Below, piece by piece: positions 1,247 through 35,518 of a stretch of 64,000 nt of DNA; positions within the stretch are counted from its first letter, which is position 1; each line of letters opens with the position of its first letter. The notes beneath the pieces are model-generated. The model did no database searches, was not told where the DNA came from, and worked only from the letters and a program-made list of their open reading frames with translations. The stretch comes from an uncultured Acidobacteriota bacterium (lineage in GTDB: Bacteria; Acidobacteriota; Thermoanaerobaculia; Gp7-AA8), in NCBI GenBank assembly GCA_963741955.1, contig CAVUKB010000009.1, forward strand, positions 53,165 to 117,164, read 5' to 3'. Made by a program: the position numbers and the translations under genes.

Positions 1247-2134
1247 ATGCCGACGAAACGATCCCTCCTCGCTTTCCTCCTCGCAAGCCTGATCGCCGTG
1301 CCTCTCTTCGCCTGGGGCGAGAAAGGCCACTACATCGCCAACGAAGCTGCCACGTACGGTACCCCCGCGGACATGCCGTACTTCTTCCACCAGGCCTACC
1401 CGCAGCTGATCTACATGTCTTACGACCCTGATCGGTGGCGCGGTGCAGGCGAGGCCCTCGACGCGGTGAACCCGCCGAACCACTTTCTCGATTACGAATA
1501 CGTCGAAGGTCTCGACCTGCCGCGTGACCGCTACGACTTCATCGATCTGATGATCCGGACCGGACGCTTCAGGAAGTACTCGATCGGTATCTCGACCACG
1601 GGATTCCTTCCGTGGCGGATCGCGGAGGTCTCGGATCTTCTCGAACAGCAGTGGCGATTCTGGCGAAGACTTCCCGCGGGGATGGAACGCTCGCAGGTCG
1701 AGCAGAACATCATTGCGATCTCCGGAGTCCTCGGGCACTACGTCGCCGATGCTTCAAACCCGGATCACACCACGATCAACTACAACGGCTGGGTCGAGCC
1801 GAACCCGGAACATTTTCCGATCGATTGCGACGCTCACTACCGCTTCGAGTCCGGATTCGTGGCGAACAGTGTCGAAGTGAGCGACGTTCTTCCGAAGCTT
1901 CACCCGCTGGTACCGCGAACCGACTATTTCAAGACCGCGCTCGAGTTGATCCACGAGTCGAACAGTCTGGTCTCCACTCTCTACCGGATCGACCGTGACG
2001 GCGGTTTCGCCTATCCGTACGGTACGAAAGAGGGGAAGGAGTTCGCGGTCTCGCGTCTCGCCTCCGGCGCGTCGGTGATGCGCGATCTCTGGTACTCGTG
2101 CTGGGTCAACTCGGGAAAATCGCGACGGCGCTGA
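1247..2134 (+). CDS. S1/P1 nuclease / zinc phospholipase C fold secreted protein
   Basis: Signal peptide followed by AWGEKGH, then HFLD, GHYVADASNPDH and HYRFES zinc-ligand motifs. Confidence 0.85.
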   Translation: MPTKRSLLAFLLASLIAVPLFAWGEKGHYIANEAATYGTPADMPYFFHQAYPQLIYMSYDPDRWRGAGEALDAVNPPNHFLDYEYVEGLDLPRDRYDFIDLMIRTGRFRKYSIGISTTGFLPWRIAEVSDLLEQQWRFWRRLPAGMERSQVEQNIIAISGVLGHYVADASNPDHTTINYNGWVEPNPEHFPIDCDAHYRFESGFVANSVEVSDVLPKLHPLVPRTDYFKTALELIHESNSLVSTLYRIDRDGGFAYPYGTKEGKEFAVSRLASGASVMRDLWYSCWVNSGKSRRR

Positions 2135-2141
2135 TCGCCAC

Positions 2142-2675
2142 TCATCCCCACAGGACGTCCCTCACACCGGCGAGCCGGTTTGCATAGCGCGCCGCAACGA
2201 AGAGAAGATCCGAGAGCCGGTTCAGGTAGACCAGGGTCGAAGGTGAGACCGCAGCTTCTTCGCCGAGTGCCACGACCAGGCGCTCGGCGCGCCGGCAGAC
2301 GGTCCGCGCGAGGTGGAGATATGCCGCGGTGAGCGAACCTCCCGGCAGAATGAAGTTCTTGAGGGGCTCGAGCTCCGCTTCCATCCGATCGATCGACTCC
2401 TCCAGGGCCGCGATCCGTTCCTCGTCCGGTCCGGGAAACTTCTCACGGGAGGCAGTGGCGGCCAGGTGAGCGCCGACATCGAAAAGATCGCTTTGTATTT
2501 TCTGAAGCTCACCGTCCAGGGGCGCCCCGTCCCACGAAGCACGAGCCACGCCGATCATCGAGTTGAGCTCGTCGACGGTTCCGTACGCGTCGATTCGCGG
2601 ATCGCTCTTCGAGACGCGTCCGCCCCCGATCAGTGACGTCTCGCCTCGATCACCGCCCTTCGTATAGATCTTCAT
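2142..2675 (-). CDS. pduO: ATP:cob(I)alamin adenosyltransferase, PduO type
   Basis: MKIYTKGGDRGETSL, AYGTVDELNS, FILPGG, RTVCRRAER and YLNRLSDLLF motifs. Confidence 0.95.
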   Translation of the reverse strand: MKIYTKGGDRGETSLIGGGRVSKSDPRIDAYGTVDELNSMIGVARASWDGAPLDGELQKIQSDLFDVGAHLAATASREKFPGPDEERIAALEESIDRMEAELEPLKNFILPGGSLTAAYLHLARTVCRRAERLVVALGEEAAVSPSTLVYLNRLSDLLFVAARYANRLAGVRDVLWG

Positions 2676-2702
2676 CGTCGGTCCCTCGCTCGATCATTTC
2701 GC

Positions 2703-2734
2703 AAAACAAAAAGGCGGCAGTGTCTGCCGCCTTT
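2703..2734 (-). terminator. Intrinsic terminator after the RomR-like gene
   Basis: AAAGGCGGCAG-tgt-CTGCCGCCTTT hairpin with an A-run on the left (U-tail on the minus strand). Confidence 0.75.
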
Positions 2735-2754
2735 CGACTTCCATTCGATGGAGG

Positions 2755-4632
2755 CTACTCCCCTTCGAGCTCGCGGATCCGCTCTTTGACGATGATCTCG
2801 GCGAGATCCGGGATCACTTCCCAGGCGATGTTCCGGACCACCTGGTCGCTGAGCTTCTCGACCACTCGTTTCGCGATCCGCTCGATCTGTTCGTCGGTCA
2901 GGTCACTGCCGGCCGGCTGGATCTCCGCGGGCGCAGCGGCCACCGGTGCAGGCGTTGCCACCGGCATCGGCGGGGGAGGCGTTGGATACTCCGGTTCCTG
3001 CCGGTATTCTTCCTGTGCTGCCGGAGGCTCTTCGACCTCGGCGGCCTCGAACGGCGAGAGTGCCGGCTCGGAGGGGAGTTCTTCTTCCGGAGCGCGGGTC
3101 TGTTCCTCTTCGACATCGGGTGCCGCCGCGACTTCGGCTTCGAAGGGCGAAGGCTGCGGAGCTTCCATTGCCGGCGCTTCCGGCTCCTCCTCGGCGGGAG
3201 CTTCTTCGCCGAACGGAGTCTCGGTCGTCTTCAGAGGCGATCCCCATGCCTGTTCCTGTTCGGCCGGAGCTTCCCACGGCGACGCTTCTTCTTCTGCGGC
3301 CGGCGCCGGTTCCGATTCCCAGGGAGAGGCGCTGGCAGGTTCTTCGGCGCCCCAAGGCTGTGGGGACTCGTTTTCGGCTTCTGCTCCAGCCCAGGGTCCG
3401 GCGGGTTCCTTCTCTTCCTCCGGCTGTTCCCACTGGGGGATCGGCTGCTCCTCCGTCTCGTCGGCTGCCGGAGGCATCGAGCCCTGCATCCGCTGGATCT
3501 CGTCGAAGCTCATCATCGGGAATGCGCGTGTCTCGCCTGCAGGGACTTCTTCCGCAGGCTCGGGTTCGTGCATCACGCCAAATGCTTCGCCCGACATCTG
3601 CTGCGAGGCTGGCTGCTCCTCCACACTCTCCGGCGGTTCTTCGAACGGCGACGGTGCGGCGTGTTCGGCAGCGGGCTCGGTTGGGGACTGAGGCGGCTCT
3701 TCCTGTTCGAACGGTGAACCGGCCGAGATCTCGGCTTCGCGCTGCTCCTCTTCCTGCTGGATGCGCTGGAGCTCTTCCGGCGACATCATCTGAAACGCGC
3801 GGGTCTCGCCGCCGTACGCGGGGGGCGCTTCTTCGCCGAAACCTCCCCCTTCGCTTTCGAACTGCGGGGGCTCGGGAGGTTGAGCCTGCCCGGTCTCTTC
3901 CGGTTGTTCCTGCATCGACTGCAGGTCCGAAAGACTCATCTTCTGAAATGTGCGGGTCTCGCCCGAGTAGTCGAAGCCTTCATCGAGAGGCATCTCCTCG
4001 GATGGAGCGGCCGCGGATTCCTGGAAGATCTCGGAGCCATGTTCTTTGAACGGCTCATCGAAGGGAGGCACTGTGTCCTCCCCGGGCTCTTCCGCCGGCT
4101 CGGCCTGCTCGAACGAAGATGGCGCGGGAGGCGTTTCGCGCTCGAACCGAGGCGGCATCTCCGACGGACTCGCGGGTTCGGCGGGAAAGTCCCAGACATT
4201 CTGCTCGGGCTCGGCGGATGCAGTCGCGGCGGGTTCTTCCTCGCGCGACTCGCCTCTCGCTCCGGCCTGCTGGATGAGCTCTTCGACCTTGTGCACCAGG
4301 CTCTGAGACTCGAACGGTTTGGTGACTACGGCATCGCATCCTGCTTTCTCCGCCCGGTCCGGGTCGAAGGGCTCGAACGTGCCGGTCAGAAGGATGACCG
4401 GGATGTTGCGGTATTCGGGATGCGACTTCACGTATTCGCAGAGCTCGTACCCATTCTTCTCGGGCATGATGATGTCCGAGAGGATGATGTCGGGATGGAT
4501 CTCCGACAGCTTCTGGATGGCTCGCGCACCGTTGCTCGTCGCGATCACCTCGTAGTCGCCGTCAGAGAACGTGAGCTCGACGACCTTCTGTATGGTGATG
4601 CTGTCATCAGCTAGAAGAATCTTCTTCGGCAT
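2755..4632 (-). CDS. RomR-like response regulator (receiver, long acidic Pro/Glu-rich linker, conserved C-terminal helix)
   Basis: Start MPKKILLADDS at 4632. Receiver with LLTGTFEPFD and KPFESQ. C-terminus VVRNIAWEVIPDLAEIIVKERIRELE matches the recalled Myxococcus RomR C-terminal motif (IAWEVVPQLAETII). Confidence 0.8.
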   Translation of the reverse strand: MPKKILLADDSITIQKVVELTFSDGDYEVIATSNGARAIQKLSEIHPDIILSDIIMPEKNGYELCEYVKSHPEYRNIPVILLTGTFEPFDPDRAEKAGCDAVVTKPFESQSLVHKVEELIQQAGARGESREEEPAATASAEPEQNVWDFPAEPASPSEMPPRFERETPPAPSSFEQAEPAEEPGEDTVPPFDEPFKEHGSEIFQESAAAPSEEMPLDEGFDYSGETRTFQKMSLSDLQSMQEQPEETGQAQPPEPPQFESEGGGFGEEAPPAYGGETRAFQMMSPEELQRIQQEEEQREAEISAGSPFEQEEPPQSPTEPAAEHAAPSPFEEPPESVEEQPASQQMSGEAFGVMHEPEPAEEVPAGETRAFPMMSFDEIQRMQGSMPPAADETEEQPIPQWEQPEEEKEPAGPWAGAEAENESPQPWGAEEPASASPWESEPAPAAEEEASPWEAPAEQEQAWGSPLKTTETPFGEEAPAEEEPEAPAMEAPQPSPFEAEVAAAPDVEEEQTRAPEEELPSEPALSPFEAAEVEEPPAAQEEYRQEPEYPTPPPPMPVATPAPVAAAPAEIQPAGSDLTDEQIERIAKRVVEKLSDQVVRNIAWEVIPDLAEIIVKERIRELEGE

Positions 4633-23694: not shown

Positions 23695-24942
23695 ATGATG
23701 AACGGAGTGGAGCTCGAGATCGAGCTGTTCTGTCGCGGGATGCGGATCGATGCTTCCTGCCACGTCGACGAAGATGGCCGGCGGATCGCGCGAACCCGCG
23801 CCGGCCTCGGGTCGGGCCTCGAGATCGTGATCCCCACCCGCCGGAAGAAGATCTGGCTGAACGTCCCGGTGACCGAATGGTTCGCCGAAGACTCTCCGTT
23901 CCTCCTGGTCCGGAGCGACGGCGGAGGCTATCTCGTCCGTGACGGTCGCGACGGGACGGAGTACCCGGTGGAGATCCCTCGCGAGCCGGTCTGGTATTCG
24001 CGACGCACCTCGTCGGGAGTGGAGATGTGCCGGGTGGGCGTGCTGCAGGGAAACTATCTCGGCGTTTACGTACTCTCGAGCTGCATGTACTGGAACCTCT
24101 CCACCTCGGAGGCGTGCAAGTTCTGCACGACCGGGAAGAACGTCGGCGCGAACGAGGAATCGAGAAAGCGGCTCTCGGACGTGATCGAGACCGCGAAGGC
24201 GGCGCGCGCCGAATCGGGATCGGTCTTCACGCATCTGAACACCGGCTACCACTTCGAAGAGGACGATCGGAAATCGGCAGTACACGGGTTGAATCAGTGT
24301 CTTCCGTACGTGGAAGCGATCCGGCGGGAAGTCGGAGGATTCATCGGGGTGCAGGCGATGCCGGTGCCGCGACGGATGTACGAGGACTACGACCGGCTGA
24401 TCGACGCGGGAACGGATCACTTCTCGTTCTGCTACGAGTTCGAGGACGAAGAGGCGTTCGCACGCCTCTGTCCGGGGAAGGCCCGCACGCACGGCCAGCG
24501 CTCGTTCTTCGAAGCGATGGACTACACCGCAGGAAAGCTCGGAAAAGGGCGGGTCTCGGGAGAGATCATTGCCGGGCTGGAACCGATCGAAGCGACCATG
24601 CGCGGGATCGACCGGATCGTCGGAGCGGGAGCATTTCCGACCGTCTGCATCTTCCGGCCGACCGCCGGAAGCGAGCTCGAGCACACGCCGCCTCCCGATC
24701 CGGGGGCGATGAAGGAGGTCTTCGCGCACCTGCATGAAGCGTGTCGCGATGCGGGGATTCCGGTCGGCGTTCTCCCGATCGAGGTCTCTCTGGTGGTCCA
24801 GCCGGAAGAGACGATCGACCTGGTGGAACCGAACCTCAAGTCGGCGTTCTACGACTGGAAGAACGGAGTTCTGCGCACGCTGGCACGCCCGTACGTCTCC
24901 TGGAAGATGCGACCCCGAGCGATCTCCGGAACCGCGGCCTGA
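23695..24942 (+). CDS. Radical SAM protein with non-canonical CX10CX2C motif
   Basis: CMYWNLSTSEACKFC, later SGEIIAGLE and FRP motifs. Resembles MSMEG_0568-like/biotin-synthase-related radical SAM proteins. Confidence 0.85.
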   Translation: MMNGVELEIELFCRGMRIDASCHVDEDGRRIARTRAGLGSGLEIVIPTRRKKIWLNVPVTEWFAEDSPFLLVRSDGGGYLVRDGRDGTEYPVEIPREPVWYSRRTSSGVEMCRVGVLQGNYLGVYVLSSCMYWNLSTSEACKFCTTGKNVGANEESRKRLSDVIETAKAARAESGSVFTHLNTGYHFEEDDRKSAVHGLNQCLPYVEAIRREVGGFIGVQAMPVPRRMYEDYDRLIDAGTDHFSFCYEFEDEEAFARLCPGKARTHGQRSFFEAMDYTAGKLGKGRVSGEIIAGLEPIEATMRGIDRIVGAGAFPTVCIFRPTAGSELEHTPPPDPGAMKEVFAHLHEACRDAGIPVGVLPIEVSLVVQPEETIDLVEPNLKSAFYDWKNGVLRTLARPYVSWKMRPRAISGTAA

Positions 24943-25048: not shown

Positions 25049-25768
25049 ATGCACGCTCCCTACAATCTCGAAATCACCGACAGCTGTTCGAAGTGCCGGC
25101 TGCGGGCAGAGAAGATTTTCTGCCAGCTTTCGCCGACGGCCCTCGAAGCGCTCGAAGCACTCAAGTTCACGAGCGTTTATCCGGCGGGCTCTCTCCTGTT
25201 CGTGCAGGGTCAGGCTCCTCGCGGGATCTTCATTCTGTGCAGCGGGCGGGTGAAGGTATCGACCTGCTCGAACGACGGAAAAACGCTGATTCTGAAAATC
25301 GCGAACGAAGGTGATGTTCTCGGCCTCAGCTCCGCGATTCTGGAACGCCCGTACGAAGTTTCGGCCGAGACGGTCGAACCCTCACAGGTCAACTTCGTCA
25401 AGCGTGAGGATTTTCTCCGCTTTCTCTCCGAATACGGTGATGCATGTCTCCACGCCGCGCAGCAGCTCAGCGAGAGCTACCATTCCGCGCAGAAGGAGAT
25501 TCGCTCGCTGGGCCTGTCGCAGTCGGCGTCCGAAAAGCTCGCCCGTCTTCTTCTCGAGTGGGCGGACGGCGGCACCTCTCGCCCCGAAGGCGACATTCGC
25601 GTGAAGCTGTTCCTCACCCACGAGGAGATCGCGCAGATGATCGGCAGCTCGCGCGAAACGGTGACCCGCCTGCTGAGTGACTTCAAGAAGCGCGACATCA
25701 TTCAGATCAAGGGCTCCACGCTCCTGATCCGGGATCGCGATCAGCTCGAAGAAATGCTCAACAGCTGA
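25049..25768 (+). CDS. Crp/Fnr family regulator with N-terminal Cys cluster
   Basis: CSKCRLRAEKIFC N-terminus, cNMP-binding fold, HTH LTHEEIAQMIGSSRETVTRLLSDF. Confidence 0.93.
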   Translation: MHAPYNLEITDSCSKCRLRAEKIFCQLSPTALEALEALKFTSVYPAGSLLFVQGQAPRGIFILCSGRVKVSTCSNDGKTLILKIANEGDVLGLSSAILERPYEVSAETVEPSQVNFVKREDFLRFLSEYGDACLHAAQQLSESYHSAQKEIRSLGLSQSASEKLARLLLEWADGGTSRPEGDIRVKLFLTHEEIAQMIGSSRETVTRLLSDFKKRDIIQIKGSTLLIRDRDQLEEMLNS

Positions 25769-25879: not shown

Positions 25880-25944
25880 TGAGGCAGGAGTCACGCTCCG
25901 CTGTATCAGTTGTCACAGCGGCTGCAGAGTGGGCTCCGTAAGCT
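25880..25944 (+). promoter_or_regulatory. Tandem Crp/Fnr boxes with -10 element
   Basis: TGAGG-caggag-TCACG (25880) and TGTAT-cagttg-TCACA (25902), 22 bp apart. -10 TAAGCT at 25939 puts the proximal box at -41.5. Confidence 0.65.
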
Positions 25945-25966
25945 TCGCGCAGTGGTCGAGAAAGCC

Positions 25967-26422
25967 ATGGAACCCCTGACTTGCATCATCCGAAACGCTC
26001 TCTCCGAGCCTTCAGATCAGACGCTCGCGACGCTTGATTCGCTCAAGAAGACGCACGTCTATCAACCGGGAGACCGGCTGTTCACGGAAGGCGAACAACC
26101 TCGTGCGGTCTACGTCGTCTGCAGCGGATCGGTGCGCCTCTTCCTTTCGTCCGGCCAGGGCCGCATGCTCGACCTGCGTACCACTGAAGCCGGCGAGATC
26201 CTCGGTCTGACGTCGGTACTCGCGGACCGTCCCTACGACATGACTGCGGAAGTCGTGGAGCCTTCGAAGATCGGGATCATCGATCGGGAAGAGATTCTCT
26301 CCTTCTTCAGCTCTCAGAACGACGTCGGCATCCGTATTCTCGAGATCCTCAGCAAGGACGTCCACAACTGCTACGAGCTGGTGCGCAGTTTCAGCGAAAA
26401 GGGCCACCGTCACCGCATGTGA
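25967..26422 (+). CDS. Stand-alone cNMP-binding domain protein (Crp-like, no HTH)
   Basis: LFTEGEQPRAVYVVCSGSVRL and GEILGLTSVLADRPYDMTAE; ends before any HTH. Paralogous to the upstream Crp/Fnr sensor domain. Confidence 0.85.
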   Translation: MEPLTCIIRNALSEPSDQTLATLDSLKKTHVYQPGDRLFTEGEQPRAVYVVCSGSVRLFLSSGQGRMLDLRTTEAGEILGLTSVLADRPYDMTAEVVEPSKIGIIDREEILSFFSSQNDVGIRILEILSKDVHNCYELVRSFSEKGHRHRM

Positions 26423-26482: not shown

Positions 26483-26558
26483 TCGATCATCGTCGCGGTG
26501 GCGGCCACCGCGGATGGAACAGCAGGCAACTTCAGAGAGATCGCAGGAGCACACACCA

Positions 26559-26900
26559 ATGGAAAAGCACACCAAAGACTGGATCGGAATCGCAATCGGA
26601 AGCCTCGCGCTCGTCGCTTTCATCTTCGTGGCCCGTCCGGCCCATGCGGCGGACAATGGCGCAACGATGTTCAAGGCGAAGTGCGTGGCCTGCCACGGCG
26701 CGGACGGCAGCGGCCAGACCGTGATGGGAAAGAAGTTCGGGATCAAGGATCTCGGATCGGCAGAGGTGCAGAAGCTCACCGATCAGCAGCTGTTCGACAT
26801 CATCTCGAAAGGCCAGAACAAAATGCCGTCCTACAGCGGCAAGATCACCGATGAAGAGATCAAGAGCCTCGTCACCTTCATCAGGACCCTCAAGAAATAA
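26559..26900 (+). CDS. Monoheme class I cytochrome c
   Basis: Signal peptide ending AHA, CVACH heme motif, KMP distal Met ligand, AGGAG RBS. Confidence 0.93.
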   Translation: MEKHTKDWIGIAIGSLALVAFIFVARPAHAADNGATMFKAKCVACHGADGSGQTVMGKKFGIKDLGSAEVQKLTDQQLFDIISKGQNKMPSYSGKITDEEIKSLVTFIRTLKK

Positions 26901-27011: not shown

Positions 27012-27077
27012 GGTGACCCCAGTCACACACGCCGGGTGACCCCTCTCATCGTTGATCCTGCGGCATTCCATTACTCT
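27012..27077 (+). promoter_or_regulatory. Tandem Crp/Fnr boxes with -10 element (cbcL-like promoter)
   Basis: GGTGA-ccccag-TCACA (27012), GGTGA-cccctc-TCATC (27035), -10 TACTCT (27072-27077). Confidence 0.7.
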
Positions 27078-27167
27078 CCGCGACAGGAGGGCCGAGTCTC
27101 CCGATCCTCGACTGTCTCCATCTCCATGCACGAGATTCCCTACCGAGTCGAACCCGCGGAGGCCCCA

Positions 27168-29150
27168 ATGCGCCGAATCACATCTGTCCTGGCGACGGTC
27201 GTCATGATCGCCCTGAGCGGCAGTGTTCTTGCCCAGACTCTGAGCAATGACGACTGCCTCCAGTGTCACCAGGACAACTCGCTCACCAAAGAAGTCAACG
27301 GCAAAGCCGTCAGCGTGCACGTCGATCCTTCCCGCTTCAACGGATCCGTGCACGGAGTCCTCGGCTGCACCGACTGTCACTCGGATATCACGGACTACCC
27401 GCATCCCGAAAAGGTGGCGAAAGTCGATTGCGCCAACTGTCATCCCGACTCGGTGGCGACGTACGAGAAGAGCGTGCACTTCGTTGCCATCGAGAAGGGT
27501 GACCAGAAGGCTGCGACCTGCTCGAGCTGTCATGGGGCCGCGCACGAGATCCTTCCTTCCAGCGATCCCGGCTCGCGCGTCTATCGGACCAACCTTCCGG
27601 AGACATGCGGCAGCTGCCACGGCGTGAAGTTCGTCATGGAAGGCTCGGGCTTCAGCGTGCAGCCGTTCTTCTCCTACCGCGAATCGGTTCACGGTCGCGC
27701 GGTGGCGAAAGGCTCGATGGCCGCGGCGATCTGTACCGACTGCCACGGTGGTCACGACATCCTTCCTCCCAACGACCCGAAATCGTCGATCTTCAAATTC
27801 AATGTCCCGACCACCTGCGGCAAATGCCACGAGCACATCTCGCAGGAGTACCTTGCGAGCGTCCACGGGAAAGCGGTGGCACGGGGCAACTGGCAGGCGC
27901 CGGTCTGCACCGACTGTCACGGCATTCACGCCATCAAGAACCCGGTCGATCCGGCTTCCTCGGTCACGGCGAAGGCGGTGGCCCGGACCACGTGCGCGCA
28001 ATGCCATTCGGGCGTTCGTCTGAGCCAGGAGTACGGCCTTCCCGGCAAGCGTGTCAGCACATACGAAGCGAGCTACCACGGCCTGGCCAACCAGCTCGGC
28101 TACACCGTGGCGGCGAACTGCGCGAGTTGCCACGGCATCCACAACATTCTTCCTTCTTCCGATCCGAAGTCCACCATCAACAAGGCCAATCTCACGAAGA
28201 CGTGCGGAAGCTGCCACCCCGGTGCGAACCAGAAGTTCGTCGAAGGAACCATCCACATCGAGGCCCCTGGAGCGACCGACGTCGGCTCCGTCGCGGTGAA
28301 GTGGATCCGGTACTTCTATCTCTGGATGATCGCCCTGGTCATCGGCGGAATGGTGCTGCACAACCTGATCCTCTGGATCAGCAAGATGCGCGCGATGCGC
28401 AGGAACACCGAGCGGACGGTCGTCCGGATGAACCGCACTCAGCGCATCCAGCACTTCCTCCTCCTCACCAGCTTCATCATCCTCGTCTTCACCGGGTTTG
28501 CGCTCGCCTATCCCGAGTCGTGGGTTGCGTGGCTTCTCGGATCGAGCGAACCGCTTCGCAGGAATCTGCATCGCGTCGCCGGAACTCTGATGATCGTGGT
28601 CGGCCTCTACCACGTCGGATACATGATCATGACTCGGGAAGGACGGAAGGGAATCCGGGACTTCCTCCCGAATCTCCAGGACCTTCGCGACGTCGTGGCC
28701 GTGCTGATGTACTACCTCGGCTTTTCGAAGAACCGTCCCCAGTTCGGCCGGTTCAACTACGCCGAGAAGGCTGAGTACTGGGCGCTGATCTGGGGCACCA
28801 TCGTGATGGCAGCGACCGGCCTGATGATGTGGTACAAAGTCATCGTCGGGAACCTGATCCCGCGCTGGTGGATCGACATCGCGACGGCGGTCCACTTCTA
28901 CGAGGCCATCCTCGCCACGCTGGCGATCGTGGTCTGGCATTTCTATCAGGTGATCTTCGACCCCGAGGTCTACCCCATGAATTGGGCCTGGTTCGATGGT
29001 CGCATGTCGCGAGAGCACTTTCAGCACGAGCATGGGCGCGCCTGGAAAGAGATGGAAGAAGAGAGAGTCGCAGAGGAAGAAGGACGGCAAGCCTCCGGTA
29101 CTCTGACGACGAAGCACGGAGGCGGCGAAGAGCCGATCGCTCCGAAGTGA
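27168..29150 (+). CDS. CbcL-like inner-membrane cytochrome (11 CxxCH hemes + FdnI/HydC-type cytochrome b domain)
   Basis: Signal peptide MRRITSVLA. 11 CxxCH motifs counted. C-terminal TM domain with QRIQH, LHRVAG, GRFNYAEKAEYWALIWG and VHFYEAILATLAIVVWHFY. Confidence 0.88.
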   Translation: MRRITSVLATVVMIALSGSVLAQTLSNDDCLQCHQDNSLTKEVNGKAVSVHVDPSRFNGSVHGVLGCTDCHSDITDYPHPEKVAKVDCANCHPDSVATYEKSVHFVAIEKGDQKAATCSSCHGAAHEILPSSDPGSRVYRTNLPETCGSCHGVKFVMEGSGFSVQPFFSYRESVHGRAVAKGSMAAAICTDCHGGHDILPPNDPKSSIFKFNVPTTCGKCHEHISQEYLASVHGKAVARGNWQAPVCTDCHGIHAIKNPVDPASSVTAKAVARTTCAQCHSGVRLSQEYGLPGKRVSTYEASYHGLANQLGYTVAANCASCHGIHNILPSSDPKSTINKANLTKTCGSCHPGANQKFVEGTIHIEAPGATDVGSVAVKWIRYFYLWMIALVIGGMVLHNLILWISKMRAMRRNTERTVVRMNRTQRIQHFLLLTSFIILVFTGFALAYPESWVAWLLGSSEPLRRNLHRVAGTLMIVVGLYHVGYMIMTREGRKGIRDFLPNLQDLRDVVAVLMYYLGFSKNRPQFGRFNYAEKAEYWALIWGTIVMAATGLMMWYKVIVGNLIPRWWIDIATAVHFYEAILATLAIVVWHFYQVIFDPEVYPMNWAWFDGRMSREHFQHEHGRAWKEMEEERVAEEEGRQASGTLTTKHGGGEEPIAPK

Positions 29151-29240
29151 GATGCATCCTGGCAGGGGTGTATCTGTCGTAGTGGCCGAACAGGGAGGGC
29201 GGATTCCGTCCCGAGACGATACTCGAGCAGGAGTTTTTTG

Positions 29241-30752
29241 ATGGCAGAGAAGCAGACGAACGGCAGTCTCATTCGTAACCCGATCAGTCTGATCGGACTA
29301 CTCATCGCGCTGGTCAGCCTCGCGAATATCCTCTTTCTGGTCTACGTAGAAGTCAGCGGCATCGAATCGAAGCCGTACATCGGCGTCCTGGCTTACATGG
29401 TCATGCCGGGAGTGATGGGCTTCGGTCTCGTCGTCGTCCTCGCGGGGATGCTCTGGGAAAGACGGAGACGGCACCATCTCGCTCCCGGCGAAGTGACCCG
29501 TTTCCCGAGGCTCGACCTGAATGACCCGCGGACCCGCCGGAACGTCTTCCTCTCCGTCGCCGGCGCCGCGATCTTCATCTTCATCAGCACCATGGGCAGC
29601 TATCAGGCGTACGAATACACCGATTCGGTGAAATTCTGCGGTCAGCTCTGCCACGGAGTGATGAATCCCGAATACACGGCTTATCTTCAGTCGCCGCACG
29701 CGCGCGTCGCCTGCGTCGAATGCCACGTCGGCCCGGGCGCGGGGTGGTACGTCCGCTCGAAGCTCTCCGGCGCGTACCAGGTCTACGCGACCGTCCTCAA
29801 CAAATTCCCGCGGCCGATCCCGACTCCGGTCGAGAATCTCCGTCCCGCTCAGCAGACGTGCGAGCAGTGCCACTGGCCGGAGAAGTTCTGGGGCGCGCAG
29901 CTGAAGGTCTTCAACCACTTCGGCTACGATGAGCAGAACACTCCGCGCGAAGTGCAGCTCCTGATCAAGACCGGCGGCGGAAGCCCGACCGGTGGCCTCA
30001 CCGCCGGTATCCACTGGCACATGAACATCGCCAACGAGATCACCTACGTCGCGACCGATGCTCAGCGGCAGACGATTCCGTGGGTTCAGCTCCGGGACCG
30101 GAAAACCGGAAAGACCGTCGTCTACGTGGCGAAGGATTCGGAAGTCAAGCCCGAACAGCTCGCGCAGATGCCGAAGCGCGTGATGGACTGCATCGACTGC
30201 CACAACCGCCCCACGCACATCTACGTCCCTCCCGACCAGTCGGTCGACCGGGCCATGCTCGCAGGGCGGATCGCCCCCGATCTTCCGTTCATCAAACAGC
30301 AGGTGGTCGACGCACTGAGCGCGTCATACAACACCACCCCCGAGGCGGTTCAGTCGATCGCGAAGAAGATGAACGACTACTACCAGACCACGTATCCTCA
30401 GATCTACGGTTCGAAGAAGGCCGAGATCGACCGCGCGGTCGCCACCACTCAGGACATCTTCCAGAAGACCATCTTCCCGGAAATGAAAGTGGACTGGAAG
30501 GTTCATCCGAACAACGTGGGTCATCTCTATTACAAGGGGTGCTTCCGCTGCCACGACGACCAGCACGTGAGCTCGGATGGAAAGGTCATCACCAAGGCAT
30601 GCAACTCGTGCCATACCGTGCTCGAGCAGCGGGAGAAGGACGTCCTCATGGTCCAGGAGCCGTCCAAGCCCTTCGAGCACCCGGTCGACCTCGGAGACCT
30701 GACCGACTACGTCTGTGCCGACTGCCACACCGGCGGCGGCTCACCCGGATGA
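29241..30752 (+). CDS. ImcH-like NapC/NirT-family heptaheme cytochrome c
   Basis: Three N-terminal TM helices. CGQLCH plus six CxxCH (CVECH, CEQCH, CIDCH, CFRCH, CNSCH, CADCH). NapC signature MNPEYTAYLQSPHARVACVECHVG. Confidence 0.88.
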   Translation: MAEKQTNGSLIRNPISLIGLLIALVSLANILFLVYVEVSGIESKPYIGVLAYMVMPGVMGFGLVVVLAGMLWERRRRHHLAPGEVTRFPRLDLNDPRTRRNVFLSVAGAAIFIFISTMGSYQAYEYTDSVKFCGQLCHGVMNPEYTAYLQSPHARVACVECHVGPGAGWYVRSKLSGAYQVYATVLNKFPRPIPTPVENLRPAQQTCEQCHWPEKFWGAQLKVFNHFGYDEQNTPREVQLLIKTGGGSPTGGLTAGIHWHMNIANEITYVATDAQRQTIPWVQLRDRKTGKTVVYVAKDSEVKPEQLAQMPKRVMDCIDCHNRPTHIYVPPDQSVDRAMLAGRIAPDLPFIKQQVVDALSASYNTTPEAVQSIAKKMNDYYQTTYPQIYGSKKAEIDRAVATTQDIFQKTIFPEMKVDWKVHPNNVGHLYYKGCFRCHDDQHVSSDGKVITKACNSCHTVLEQREKDVLMVQEPSKPFEHPVDLGDLTDYVCADCHTGGGSPG

Positions 30753-30760
30753 GGAAAGCA

Positions 30761-30833
30761 TCGAGGATCTACGATCTAGAATCTAGGATCTGAAAAGCAT
30801 CTAGGATCTGGGATCTAGGATCGAGGATCTGAA
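30761..30833. repeat. Short heptamer tandem repeat (TCTAGGA consensus)
   Basis: tcgagga tctacga tctagaa tctagga tctgaaa agca tctagga tctggga tctagga tcgagga tctgaa. Confidence 0.85.
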
Positions 30834-31111
30834 CGGCATCGATGATTTGAGATCAGACGTCCCGGCGTGATGGTTCAGCACGGGCCTCCTTCGGGAGGCC
30901 CGTTCGGTCCGGGGGTGCGGATCCTCCGATCCGCCGCGAGGATCGGGTTGTACGCGAGGAAAGCGGCGGATGAAGGGCGAGCGCGGAGCGTCGGTCCCGC
31001 AACCGCGCCGGATGCAGACGCTGCTTCGCTTCTGCCACCGGCATCGTCTCGGTCCGCTCGGAACGCGATTCGCGCGGCGCTCCCCACGGGCGCGGAGATT
31101 GCCGGCCGGTT

Positions 31112-31176
31112 GTTTCCGTTCGTCACTCGGAGCGGTGACGCACGTCATAGGGAAACTCCCAAGCCCCCTCTATAAC
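31112..31176 (+). promoter_or_regulatory. Crp/Fnr class II promoter of the candidate ncRNA
   Basis: GGTGA-cgcacg-TCATA (31134-31149), a TCACT half-site 22 bp upstream, -10 TATAAC (31171-31176). Box centre is -41.5 from predicted +1 at 31183. Confidence 0.65.
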
Positions 31177-31182
31177 TGTTTT

Positions 31183-31652
31183 CGGAACGCGAGTTCTTTG
31201 AATTTTGATCTGATTTCAGGTTTGGAGGGCTGGACCTCTCGGATGCCTGCACCCACGGTCGGATGACGAATCGTTCTCTCGATCATGGTGGCGCTCCTGC
31301 TCGTACTCTCCATCCGCCGGATCTCACGCCGTCGAAGCGCAGCATCAGCCCGGTTTACTCGGAGATGCCTCCTCCTTTCTGCGAGGCTGATGCGACGCTC
31401 GGTGGAATGCCGTTCACGATGGTTCGATCCGGTTTGTTCGTCGCGTTCCTGCCGCGACGGACCAAGCAAGTCGCCCTGCTTGTGATGACGACTCTCGGTC
31501 ACCTTGCCACCTTTCGTGCTCTGAAAAGGACCATGGTTCCGGTCAACGAGCTCGCGGCGCCACTCGTCCTTCGACAGCAGGTATTCGAATCCAGCCCTCC
31601 GATTTACCTCCTTTTCTCTCGAGCCGCGCGGCCCTTCGCGCGGCTTTTTTTT
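31183..31652 (+). ncRNA. Candidate structured ncRNA (~470 nt)
   Basis: Closing helix GGAGGGCTGGA (31224-31234) / TCCAGCCCTCC (31590-31600) plus TCGGATGCCTGC / GCAGGTATTCGA. Internal hairpins, upstream promoter, downstream terminator, no convincing ORF. Confidence 0.55.
31622..31652 (+). terminator. Strong intrinsic terminator
   Basis: AGCCGCGCG-gccctt-CGCGCGGCT followed by a T-run to 31652. Confidence 0.88.
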
Positions 31653-31725
31653 GTCCGCCGGACAGCCGCTCACCCCTCCTTCTCTCCGAAGGCGCCGGAA
31701 TGTCTCTTACCGGTGCCGGAACTCG

Positions 31726-31790
31726 TGTGATTGGAGTCACATCGGCACTTGACCGGAGTCATAACTGCGGCGGACGAGCGGTCCTATAGT
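31726..31790 (+). promoter_or_regulatory. Tandem Crp/Fnr boxes with -10 element (PFOR promoter)
   Basis: Perfect TGTGA-ttggag-TCACA (31726-31741), CTTGA-ccggag-TCATA (31748-31763), -10 TATAGT (31785-31790). Proximal box at -41.5. Confidence 0.8.
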
Positions 31791-31816
31791 GCGAATCAGA
31801 GCGGAAAGGAATCCAA

Positions 31817-35518
<3,702 letters not shown>

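Follow-up and report, generated by a model that had tools for sequence, protein, structure and literature searches.

The 64,000-nucleotide (nt) stretch of DNA analysed here (the window; GenBank assembly GCA_963741955.1, contig CAVUKB010000009.1, positions 53,165 to 117,164) comes from an uncultured bacterium of the Acidobacteriota, and it raises the question of what occupies the gap of about 1 kb that separates an ImcH-like cytochrome gene from the gene for pyruvate:ferredoxin oxidoreductase (PFOR). The original prediction placed in this gap a structured non-coding RNA (ncRNA) of about 470 nt behind a Crp/Fnr class II promoter, and on direct reading every feature that it listed is present, base for base, at its coordinates. 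Our comparison with related genomes leads to a similar answer: we consider it moderately probable that 31183-31652 on the plus strand is an independent ncRNA gene, structured and under selection, that shares Crp/Fnr-type control with PFOR and the cytochrome genes. The product would be a probable new, clade-restricted regulatory RNA; no known family fits it. The parts of the proposed transcription unit are as follows.

31114-31125 (+): degenerate second site, 22 bp upstream of the RNA box, in which only GTCA is retained
31134-31149 (+): box GGTGA-N6-TCATA, by direct reading, with its centre at 31141.5
31171-31176 (+): -10 hexamer TATAAC, by direct reading, with a predicted start at about 31183
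31183-31652 (+): candidate ncRNA gene, about 470 nt
31621-31652 (+): intrinsic terminator, with an 11-bp stem (31621-31646) and a T8 run that ends at 31652

The homologous imcH-PFOR intergenic regions, whose collection had been proposed together with the original prediction, yielded five copies of the element: those of the window (genome G000) and of genome G024, two in genome G042 (G042a, which is cut at the contig start, and G042b) and one on the metagenome contig L038 (also called MG38). The copies of the window, G024, G042b and MG38 are referred to below as the four complete copies. The matching loci are recorded as belonging to the class Thermoanaerobaculia of the phylum Acidobacteriota, and all five copies, including those at both G042 PFOR loci, lie between an ImcH-like cytochrome gene and PFOR in the orientation of PFOR.

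At the level of sequence, the promoter assigned to the unit is well supported. The box has the palindromic core TGACGCACGTCA (31136-31147), and with the -10 hexamer at 31171-31176 and the start at about 31183 its centre would therefore lie at -41.5, the class II position. The -10 hexamer begins 29.5 nt past the box centre in the window; the corresponding distance is 29.5-30.5 nt in the RNA promoters of G024 and G042b and in the PFOR promoters of all three genomes, so that a TAnnnT-type hexamer stands at this spacing in three lineages. The RNA box of G024 is perfectly palindromic (TGACCGCAGTCA) and is preceded by another palindrome 22 bp upstream, and a TGAC-N4-GTCA-type box at a fixed distance from a TAnnnT -10 hexamer is kept in all complete copies. 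A promoter scan found no sigma-70 -35/-10 pair at the copies of the unit, as would be expected of promoters of the Crp/Fnr class II type. On the scale of the genome, TGAC-N4-GTCA occurs at 126 sites, compared with 39, 35 and 41 sites for spacings of N3, N5 and N6 and with 30-87 sites for permuted half-sites, so that the N4 spacing is enriched about 3-fold. In addition, the gene cluster itself encodes a candidate regulator.

25049-25768 (+): Crp/Fnr-family regulator gene (Pfam cNMP_binding, HTH_Crp_2 and Crp), about 6 kb upstream of the RNA

The translation of this gene has an N-terminal C13-x2-C16-x8-C25 pattern and the recognition helix RETVTR. We take this helix to be of the CRP type, which suits GTGA-type half-sites, and the C-x2-C-x8-C pattern is reminiscent of the cluster ligands of Escherichia coli FNR. 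This regulator probably binds the box of the RNA promoter. Transcription of the RNA would then start from an activator-dependent promoter of the class II type, and the same regulator would also serve PFOR and the CbcL-like and ImcH-like cytochrome genes.

At the other end of the unit, the strong terminator at 31652 and the plus-strand polarity drawn from it both hold in the relatives: a terminator scan placed intrinsic terminators on the plus strand at the homologous position in all five copies. In the window the scan found one terminator-like site against 1.2 expected in shuffled sequences, a count that is unremarkable by itself. Transcription of the RNA is predicted to end at 31621-31652. 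In G042b and L038 the upstream cytochrome gene ends with a terminator of its own, and therefore the RNA unit there appears to be bracketed on both sides.

Whether the element is under selection was judged by its identity between copies relative to identity at the 4-fold degenerate sites of the adjacent PFOR gene.

G042b and L038: element 0.95 (465 columns), PFOR 4-fold sites 0.74 (n = 255)
G024 and G042a: element 0.95 (240 columns), PFOR 4-fold sites 0.67 (n = 109)
G024 and G042b: element 0.82, PFOR 4-fold sites 0.51
Window and the others: element 0.70-0.72 of aligned columns, PFOR 4-fold sites 0.46-0.52, a weak comparison in which gapped alignment inflates identity

By this measure the element evolves more slowly than the silent sites of PFOR.

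The predicted structure of the RNA points in the same direction. The minimum free energy (MFE) of 31183-31652 on the plus strand is -203.4 kcal/mol, compared with -166.5 +/- 5.6 kcal/mol for 100 dinucleotide shuffles (z -6.64; no shuffle was as good), and the MFE fold includes both of the long-range pairings between the ends that had been described from the sequence. The main structural features of the window RNA are these.

31183-31212 (+): 5' terminal hairpin at the predicted start, from the MFE fold
31218-31234 (+): 5' strand of the closing helix P1 (AGGUUUGGAGGGCUGGA), which pairs with 31590-31609
31590-31602, with an extension at 31606-31609 (+): 3' strand of P1, by direct reading and MFE fold
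31239-31250 (+): 5' strand of P2, 12 bp with 31577-31588, two of them G-U
31577-31588 (+): 3' strand of P2, by direct reading and MFE fold
31342-31350/31385-31393 (+): hairpin GCATCAGCC/GGCTGATGC, which carries the block UGCCUCCUCCUU (local fold z -3.1)
31436-31462 (+): GC hairpin TCGTCGCG/CGCGACGG with the loop UUCCUGC (TTCCTGC in the DNA), by reading and MFE fold; its sequence is not conserved in relatives

The end pairing is not only present in the window but also conserved in relatives with compensatory change. Within P1, the 11 nt of 31224-31234 (GGAGGGCTGGA) are perfectly complementary to 31590-31600. The sequence of the 5' strand is kept in all four complete copies, the helix can be written as UUGGAGGGYUGG with CCARCCCUCCR, and in G024 a C-to-U change is matched by a G-to-A change opposite (C-G to U-A), the matching A being found also in the 3' strand of G042a. 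At the place of P2, G024 (in its centroid fold) and G042b also have a 12-bp helix, the sequence of which is wholly different among the three lineages. Similarly, the RNAs of G024 and G042b each open at the predicted +1 with a hairpin unrelated in sequence, and five of the six pairs of the 5' hairpin helix are changed on both sides in alignment A4. P1, P2, the 5' hairpin and the terminator are thus retained with differing sequences in the homologues. RNAalifold of four sequences gave 115 pairs, of which 34 are changed on both sides, compared with 14.6 +/- 2.8 in shuffles (none of 500 reached 34) and 5-13 in controls with slid partners, with the limit that the structure was predicted from the same alignment and that only three independent lineages contribute. 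As modelled, the helices are preserved while their sequences drift.

The same folds bear on the strand. An RNA of the CsrB type, rich in GGA and read from the minus strand, had been offered as the alternative, and the minus strand does fold better than its shuffles (z -4.23 in the window). However, the plus strand out-folds the minus strand in every lineage (z -6.64, -3.18 and -5.07 for plus; -4.23, -2.31 and -4.26 for minus), promoters and terminators are on the plus strand in every copy, and GGA occurs 12 times on the minus strand versus 10 times on the plus strand in 470 nt. Moreover, CsrA (PF02599), the expected partner, was not found in G000, an assembly that is 99.1% complete. We reject the minus-strand alternative, the probability of which we regard as negligible.

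A narrow distribution would suit a different explanation, namely that the element is a non-functional spacer, transcribed or not, left over from a lost gene or a duplicated PFOR promoter. With the G042b element as the query, BLAST found the element in 3 of the 124 genomes of the family, covering 3 of 40 genera; the remaining copy is the one on the metagenome contig. The element of the window gave a single match of 52 nt among 41 relatives, in G024, which belongs to another genus of the family, and again just upstream of PFOR; only the core part of the window's element was found by BLAST in another genus. A profile built from four sequences and searched (nhmmer) against the collected loci except L001, L003 and L005 returned only the known copies and a match with an E value of 0.014 on L035, a locus judged a chance match in the exact 21-mer scan. 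That scan gave four stretches in genome contigs, three real and one by chance (an Armatimonadetes record), and two in metagenome contigs, one real (L038) and one by chance. A covariance model of the core (R1) scored the known copies at 69.8-95.3 bits and had hits at E<=0.1 in 5 of the 124 family genomes, two of them being chance matches inside coding regions; over a 151-genome sample of the class it found G000 only, with none in the other 150. Two further observations would fit a relic: a gene of 132-139 amino acids (aa) with a cNMP domain occupies this place in other genera, and the window carries an extra 250 nt or so of GC-rich non-coding DNA just upstream. A derivation from the cNMP-domain gene was considered and discarded, tblastn giving no similarity (best E 0.19). 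Against a relic of any kind, the element is conserved above the level of synonymous sites, its helices survive sequence change and it is single-copy in the window's genome. We therefore consider a functionless spacer very unlikely.

The unit was also said to hold no convincing open reading frame (ORF), and this was borne out. Four ORFs of the region, 31170-31673 (-), 31263-31730 (+), 30867-31175 (+) and 30970-31266 (+), have no Pfam match. The GC content at third codon positions of the two large ones is 0.63 and 0.64, compared with 0.786 +/- 0.042 for 2038 long genes of the same genome. Peptide cross-matches among the homologues are weak and are spread over five frames (three plus, two minus), none of which dominates. 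The conserved core is read in one frame by the long plus-strand ORF of the window and in another by that of G024, and no frame is kept among relatives. A more specific coding explanation is a small protein whose start codon would be the ATG at 31485, within the core (window: MTTLGHLATFRALK...; G024 and G042a: MTTVGFPATFRALKTMIANLGSAAG). This ATG is kept in all five copies, and over the first 16 codons three of the seven substitutions between the window and G024 fall at third positions, a 3-nt insertion in the window being in frame. However, three of seven is the share expected by chance, no Shine-Dalgarno (SD) sequence precedes the ATG, and conservation of the frame stops after about 17 codons. 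The stop of the frame also varies, giving 25 aa in G024 and G042a and a frame that crosses the terminator in the window and G042b. Such a protein seems to us highly improbable.

As to known RNA families, the comparison with Rfam that had been suggested gave no match to any of them (including 6S, RNase P, tmRNA, SRP, FnrS, CsrB/RsmZ, Acido-1, Acido-Lenti-1 and riboswitches). When the whole window was compared with Rfam 15 at the gathering thresholds, only a tRNA at 983-1056 was found and nothing at the RNA unit. A permissive scan of 30780-31830 (E up to 10) gave ten matches, all below thresholds; the best of these was ncS54 with 22.3 bits against a gathering threshold of 43, and seven of the ten reach about 31650 on the plus strand and take in the terminator. 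Among the literature searched, we found no studied regulatory RNA in Thermoanaerobaculia. The main text of a 2017 survey of structured RNAs does not mention PFOR, nifJ or Acidobacteria, and that of a 2010 survey does not mention ferredoxin oxidoreductase; the Acidobacteria motifs named in the main text of the latter, Acido-1 and Acido-Lenti-1, are in Rfam and have no match to the window RNA. Judged by Rfam 15 and the main texts of these two surveys, the RNA looks like a previously undescribed one.

Several points weigh against an independent, regulated ncRNA gene. The start, end, strand and induction of the RNA are all inferred from sequence, and the link between the regulator and the box consists of proximity and helix type only. 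The -10 hexamer of the window has C as its last base, and the left half of the RNA box is degenerate in G042b and L038 (TGTTGGGAGTCA). On the structural side, besides the limit on the pair count given above, MAFFT misaligns the 3' strand of P1 of the window in alignment A4; a profile-based realignment improved P1 and left the interior of the window RNA no better. The inner architecture of the window RNA is unlike that of its relatives, lacking, for example, the 3'-side hairpin between P2 and P1.

The constant position of the element belongs with these points. It lies directly upstream of PFOR and in the same orientation in all five copies, with its terminator 20-100 nt ahead of the PFOR boxes, which would fit a cis-acting part in PFOR expression, either as a long leader or attenuator or as an upstream unit that tunes PFOR by read-through and termination. 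In the window alone, moreover, the core is able to pair with the ribosome-binding region of PFOR (rank 58 of 3759). The promoter of PFOR speaks against a cis role.

31728-31739 and 31750-31761 (+): tandem boxes of PFOR, 3' of the RNA terminator
31785-31790 (+): -10 hexamer of PFOR, TATAGT, by direct reading

In every copy, one or more PFOR boxes and a -10 hexamer with class II geometry stand after the RNA terminator, which is not the arrangement of a riboswitch or leader. Furthermore, no conserved anti-terminator alternative was seen on reading the sequences of the copies, the pairing of the core with the PFOR start is not conserved, and most PFOR genes of the family manage without the element. 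A cis role is therefore unlikely in our view, and an independent ncRNA gene remains the explanation that we prefer.

Two segments of the RNA (31366-31377 and 31484-31525) are invariant amid changing surroundings; they are listed here with its two pyrimidine-rich motifs.

31366-31377 (+): pyrimidine block UGCCUCCUCCUU, unchanged in the four complete copies
31368-31380 (+): motif CCTCCTCCTTTCT, by direct reading
31484-31525 (+): core GAUGACGACUnUCGGUnnCCnUGCnACCUUUCGUGCUCUnAA, about 40 nt, with weak local structure
31606-31617 (+): second motif like the 16S tail, ACCTCCTTTTCT (ACCUCCUUUUCU), by direct reading

The core has 40 invariant columns over five copies in the 79-column alignment A6 (core and flanks), with local fold z values of -0.7 to +0.7, and the upstream pairing partner of UGCCUCCUCCUU differs by lineage. 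An invariant, weakly structured core in a variable scaffold looks like a binding site for another molecule. As a working guess, which we prefer but hold only tentatively, the scaffold of the 5' hairpin, P1, P2 and the inner hairpins would display UGCCUCCUCCUU and the core of about 40 nt, and these pyrimidine-rich segments would form Hfq-independent duplexes in trans with mRNAs at purine-rich ribosome-binding regions, adjusting translation once the regulator has activated the PFOR and cytochrome programme. Hfq (PF17209) was not found in G000 (99.1% complete), in a search whose control was positive in 5 of 14 genomes.

Several observations on pairing count against this guess. Motifs resembling the anti-SD sequence had been noted to recur in the RNA, and they are present in the window. 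The first does not vary between copies, but in relatives most of its CCUCCUU part lies within helices (unpaired probability 0-0.3), and the second, ACCUCCUUUUCU, is unique to this genome, being absent from G024, G042a, G042b and MG38. Complements of the core with up to two mismatches occur at 28 sites in G000 against 42 for the reversed control and are thus not enriched. The genes of the cluster gave no consistent signal as targets, and no conserved target emerged. Complements of the GAGCAC type lie in the start regions of the cytochrome c gene in the window and in MG38, with a length of 11 nt in the latter; G024 has a different site, and the gene was not found at the G042b locus. Pairing of the core with the PFOR ribosome-binding site was dismissed as a general mechanism, since it is not conserved (fraction of the background at least as good: 0.056, 0.53, 0.12, 0.64 and 0.68). 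A perfect 12-nt complement of the core lies over the hisB stop and the hisH SD region (G000:C10:251187-251198); it encodes the conserved STKG, about 0.65 such 12-mers are expected by chance per genome, and we treat it as a chance match. A stretch of 11 nt from GACGACTCTCG of the RNA occurs again 20 nt downstream of this complement. Apart from the RNA, the complement of UGCCUCCUCCUU has a single exact site in the genome, and a further 32 sites differ from it by one mismatch; these were set aside as unspecific, several being followed by an ATG after a few bases, as any SD-like word would be.

The lack of an enriched or conserved complementary target would fit an RNA that acted not by pairing with mRNAs but as a decoy or scaffold for a protein or the ribosome through its invariant core. 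The core never varies and has only weak local structure, base-pairing small RNAs (sRNAs) do not typically have so large a scaffold, and some segments are identical to the 16S 3' tail: the 16S rRNA of the window's genome ends in ...GGAUCACCUCCUUUCUAAGG, and 31371-31380 reproduces 10 nt and 31606-31614 reproduces 9 nt of this tail. In contrast, neither CsrA nor Hfq was found in G000, and repeated binding motifs are lacking. A decoy or scaffold function appears rather unlikely, if worth keeping in mind. More speculatively, the RNA might be a regulator-induced mimic of the anti-SD tail that shows the 16S 3'-end copies CCUCCUUUCU (10 nt identical) and ACCUCCUUU (in this genome) beside the core, and that would compete with the 30S subunit for SD sequences or bind a ribosome-associated factor. 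We regard this as a long shot; if true, it would mean a global reprogramming of translation at the switch to anaerobic metabolism based on PFOR and cytochromes, without Hfq or CsrA.

Several RNAs of other bacteria are the nearest counterparts of the window RNA. FnrS is an FNR-activated sRNA of Escherichia coli (PMC8595263, PMC10993149, PMC11572966). Like it, the window unit would be an ncRNA gene with a class II box of the Crp/Fnr family and a predicted intrinsic terminator, co-regulated with genes of anaerobic metabolism. FnrS is, however, about 120 nt long and Hfq-dependent; the window RNA, a multi-helix scaffold of about 470 nt, has no sequence or Rfam match to it, no Hfq gene was found in the window's genome, and the box is CRP-like (GTGAC-N4-GTCAC) rather than TTGAT-N4-ATCAA. 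RoxS/RsaE of Firmicutes are sRNAs with C-rich regions that act on redox and central metabolism (PMC6158497, PMC8216469, PMC5419742). By analogy, the window RNA would share with them pyrimidine-rich segments proposed to pair with SD regions, the lack of a known RNA hub protein and a link to redox and central metabolism, but there is no homology, the window RNA is about 4 times longer and its pyrimidine block is mostly paired in relatives. RNAIII of Staphylococcus aureus, at about 500 nt, is a multi-hairpin RNA whose pyrimidine-rich motifs are thought to occlude ribosome-binding sites, and in its large size, many hairpins and pyrimidine-rich motifs the window RNA resembles it; in contrast to RNAIII, the window RNA has no embedded toxin ORF or quorum-sensing context, shows no homology to it and lacks repeated and conserved anti-SD loops. 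The alphaproteobacterial sRNA MmgR/suhB (RF00519) carries a CCUCCUCCC motif. It was among the best sub-threshold Rfam matches (31590-31659), and both RNAs have a CCUCC-type motif followed by a terminator, although the match (20.8 bits against a gathering threshold of 41) is driven by the terminator, and phylum and size differ. At most, then, the window RNA would resemble FnrS or RoxS in its logic and RNAIII in its size.

The surroundings of the unit are listed next, from the upstream boxes to PFOR.

23649: GTGAC-N4-GTCAC box ahead of a gene of unknown family (23695-24942)
25910-26422: gene for a protein with a cNMP-binding domain alone, next after the Crp/Fnr regulator gene
26420: GTGAC-N4-GTCAC box ahead of a cytochrome c gene (26514-26900, with the ATG at 26560 as the more probable start)
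27014: GTGAC-N4-GTCAC box ahead of a CbcL-like cytochrome b/multihaem gene (27036-29150)
29238-30752: ImcH-like multihaem cytochrome gene of the NapC/NirT type, named by Pfam
31817-35518 (+): PFOR gene, named by Pfam

Six boxes fall within an 8-kb part of the window (23649, 26420, 27014, 31136, 31728 and 31750), and elsewhere in the genome boxes precede two further multihaem cytochromes, several PAS kinases, a GGDEF regulator, a Fur-family gene and others. On G000:C5 (341469-341713), four copies of GGTGATCGGGGTCAG within about 240 nt, non-coding by rough gene calls, form a short tandem-like repeat that matches the box pattern by accident. Among 30 family PFOR loci, 22 have a box no more than 300 nt upstream of the extrapolated PFOR start and nine have a pair of boxes 22 bp apart upstream of PFOR; a looser listing finds a box somewhere in the locus in 27. 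The order Crp/Fnr regulator, cytochrome c, CbcL-like, ImcH-like, RNA, PFOR is identical in the window, G024 and L038, and the G042 locus keeps it, except that no cytochrome c gene was found there. The pair of Crp/Fnr and cNMP-domain genes lies immediately upstream of PFOR in L015, L017 and L022, which represent three other genera. From this comparison, it seems that in the clade of the window the cytochrome genes and the RNA came to lie between the regulator and PFOR.

Some details of these loci may be added. In the gap of the window, short GGATC-containing repeats (about 30800-30835) lie 3' of the ImcH-like stop codon, and a hairpin without a U tract (about 30873-30905) lies between the ImcH-like gene and the RNA unit. 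The GC-rich stretch of about 250 nt then follows, to about 31112, with a GC content of up to 0.715 (200-nt window); it is missing in relatives, where a shorter spacer separates the upstream terminator from the box (in G042b and L038, about 55-75 nt). G042 carries two loci with RNA and PFOR, on G042:C22 (L004/L036) and G042:C68 (L033), and the RNA on the short G042 contig is 95% identical to that of G024 and merely 80% identical to the other G042 copy, a pattern that suggests transfer, an ancient duplication or a foreign contig in the bin. In G024, the PFOR reading frame (L002, about 1764-3050) becomes arginine-rich nonsense past about residue 205, a likely sign of a frameshift, either of the assembly or of the gene itself.

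The context of this candidate is unusually complete, with a promoter box, a candidate regulator nearby and enough homologues for selection to be seen. The genes with which it would be co-regulated are PFOR and the CbcL-like and ImcH-like quinol-oxidising cytochromes, of the kind used in extracellular electron transfer. If our reading is true, the RNA would bring post-transcriptional control to the way in which soil Acidobacteriota switch their electron flow between respiration and fermentation, and it would illustrate the action of large regulatory RNAs in bacteria in which Hfq and CsrA were both searched for without success.

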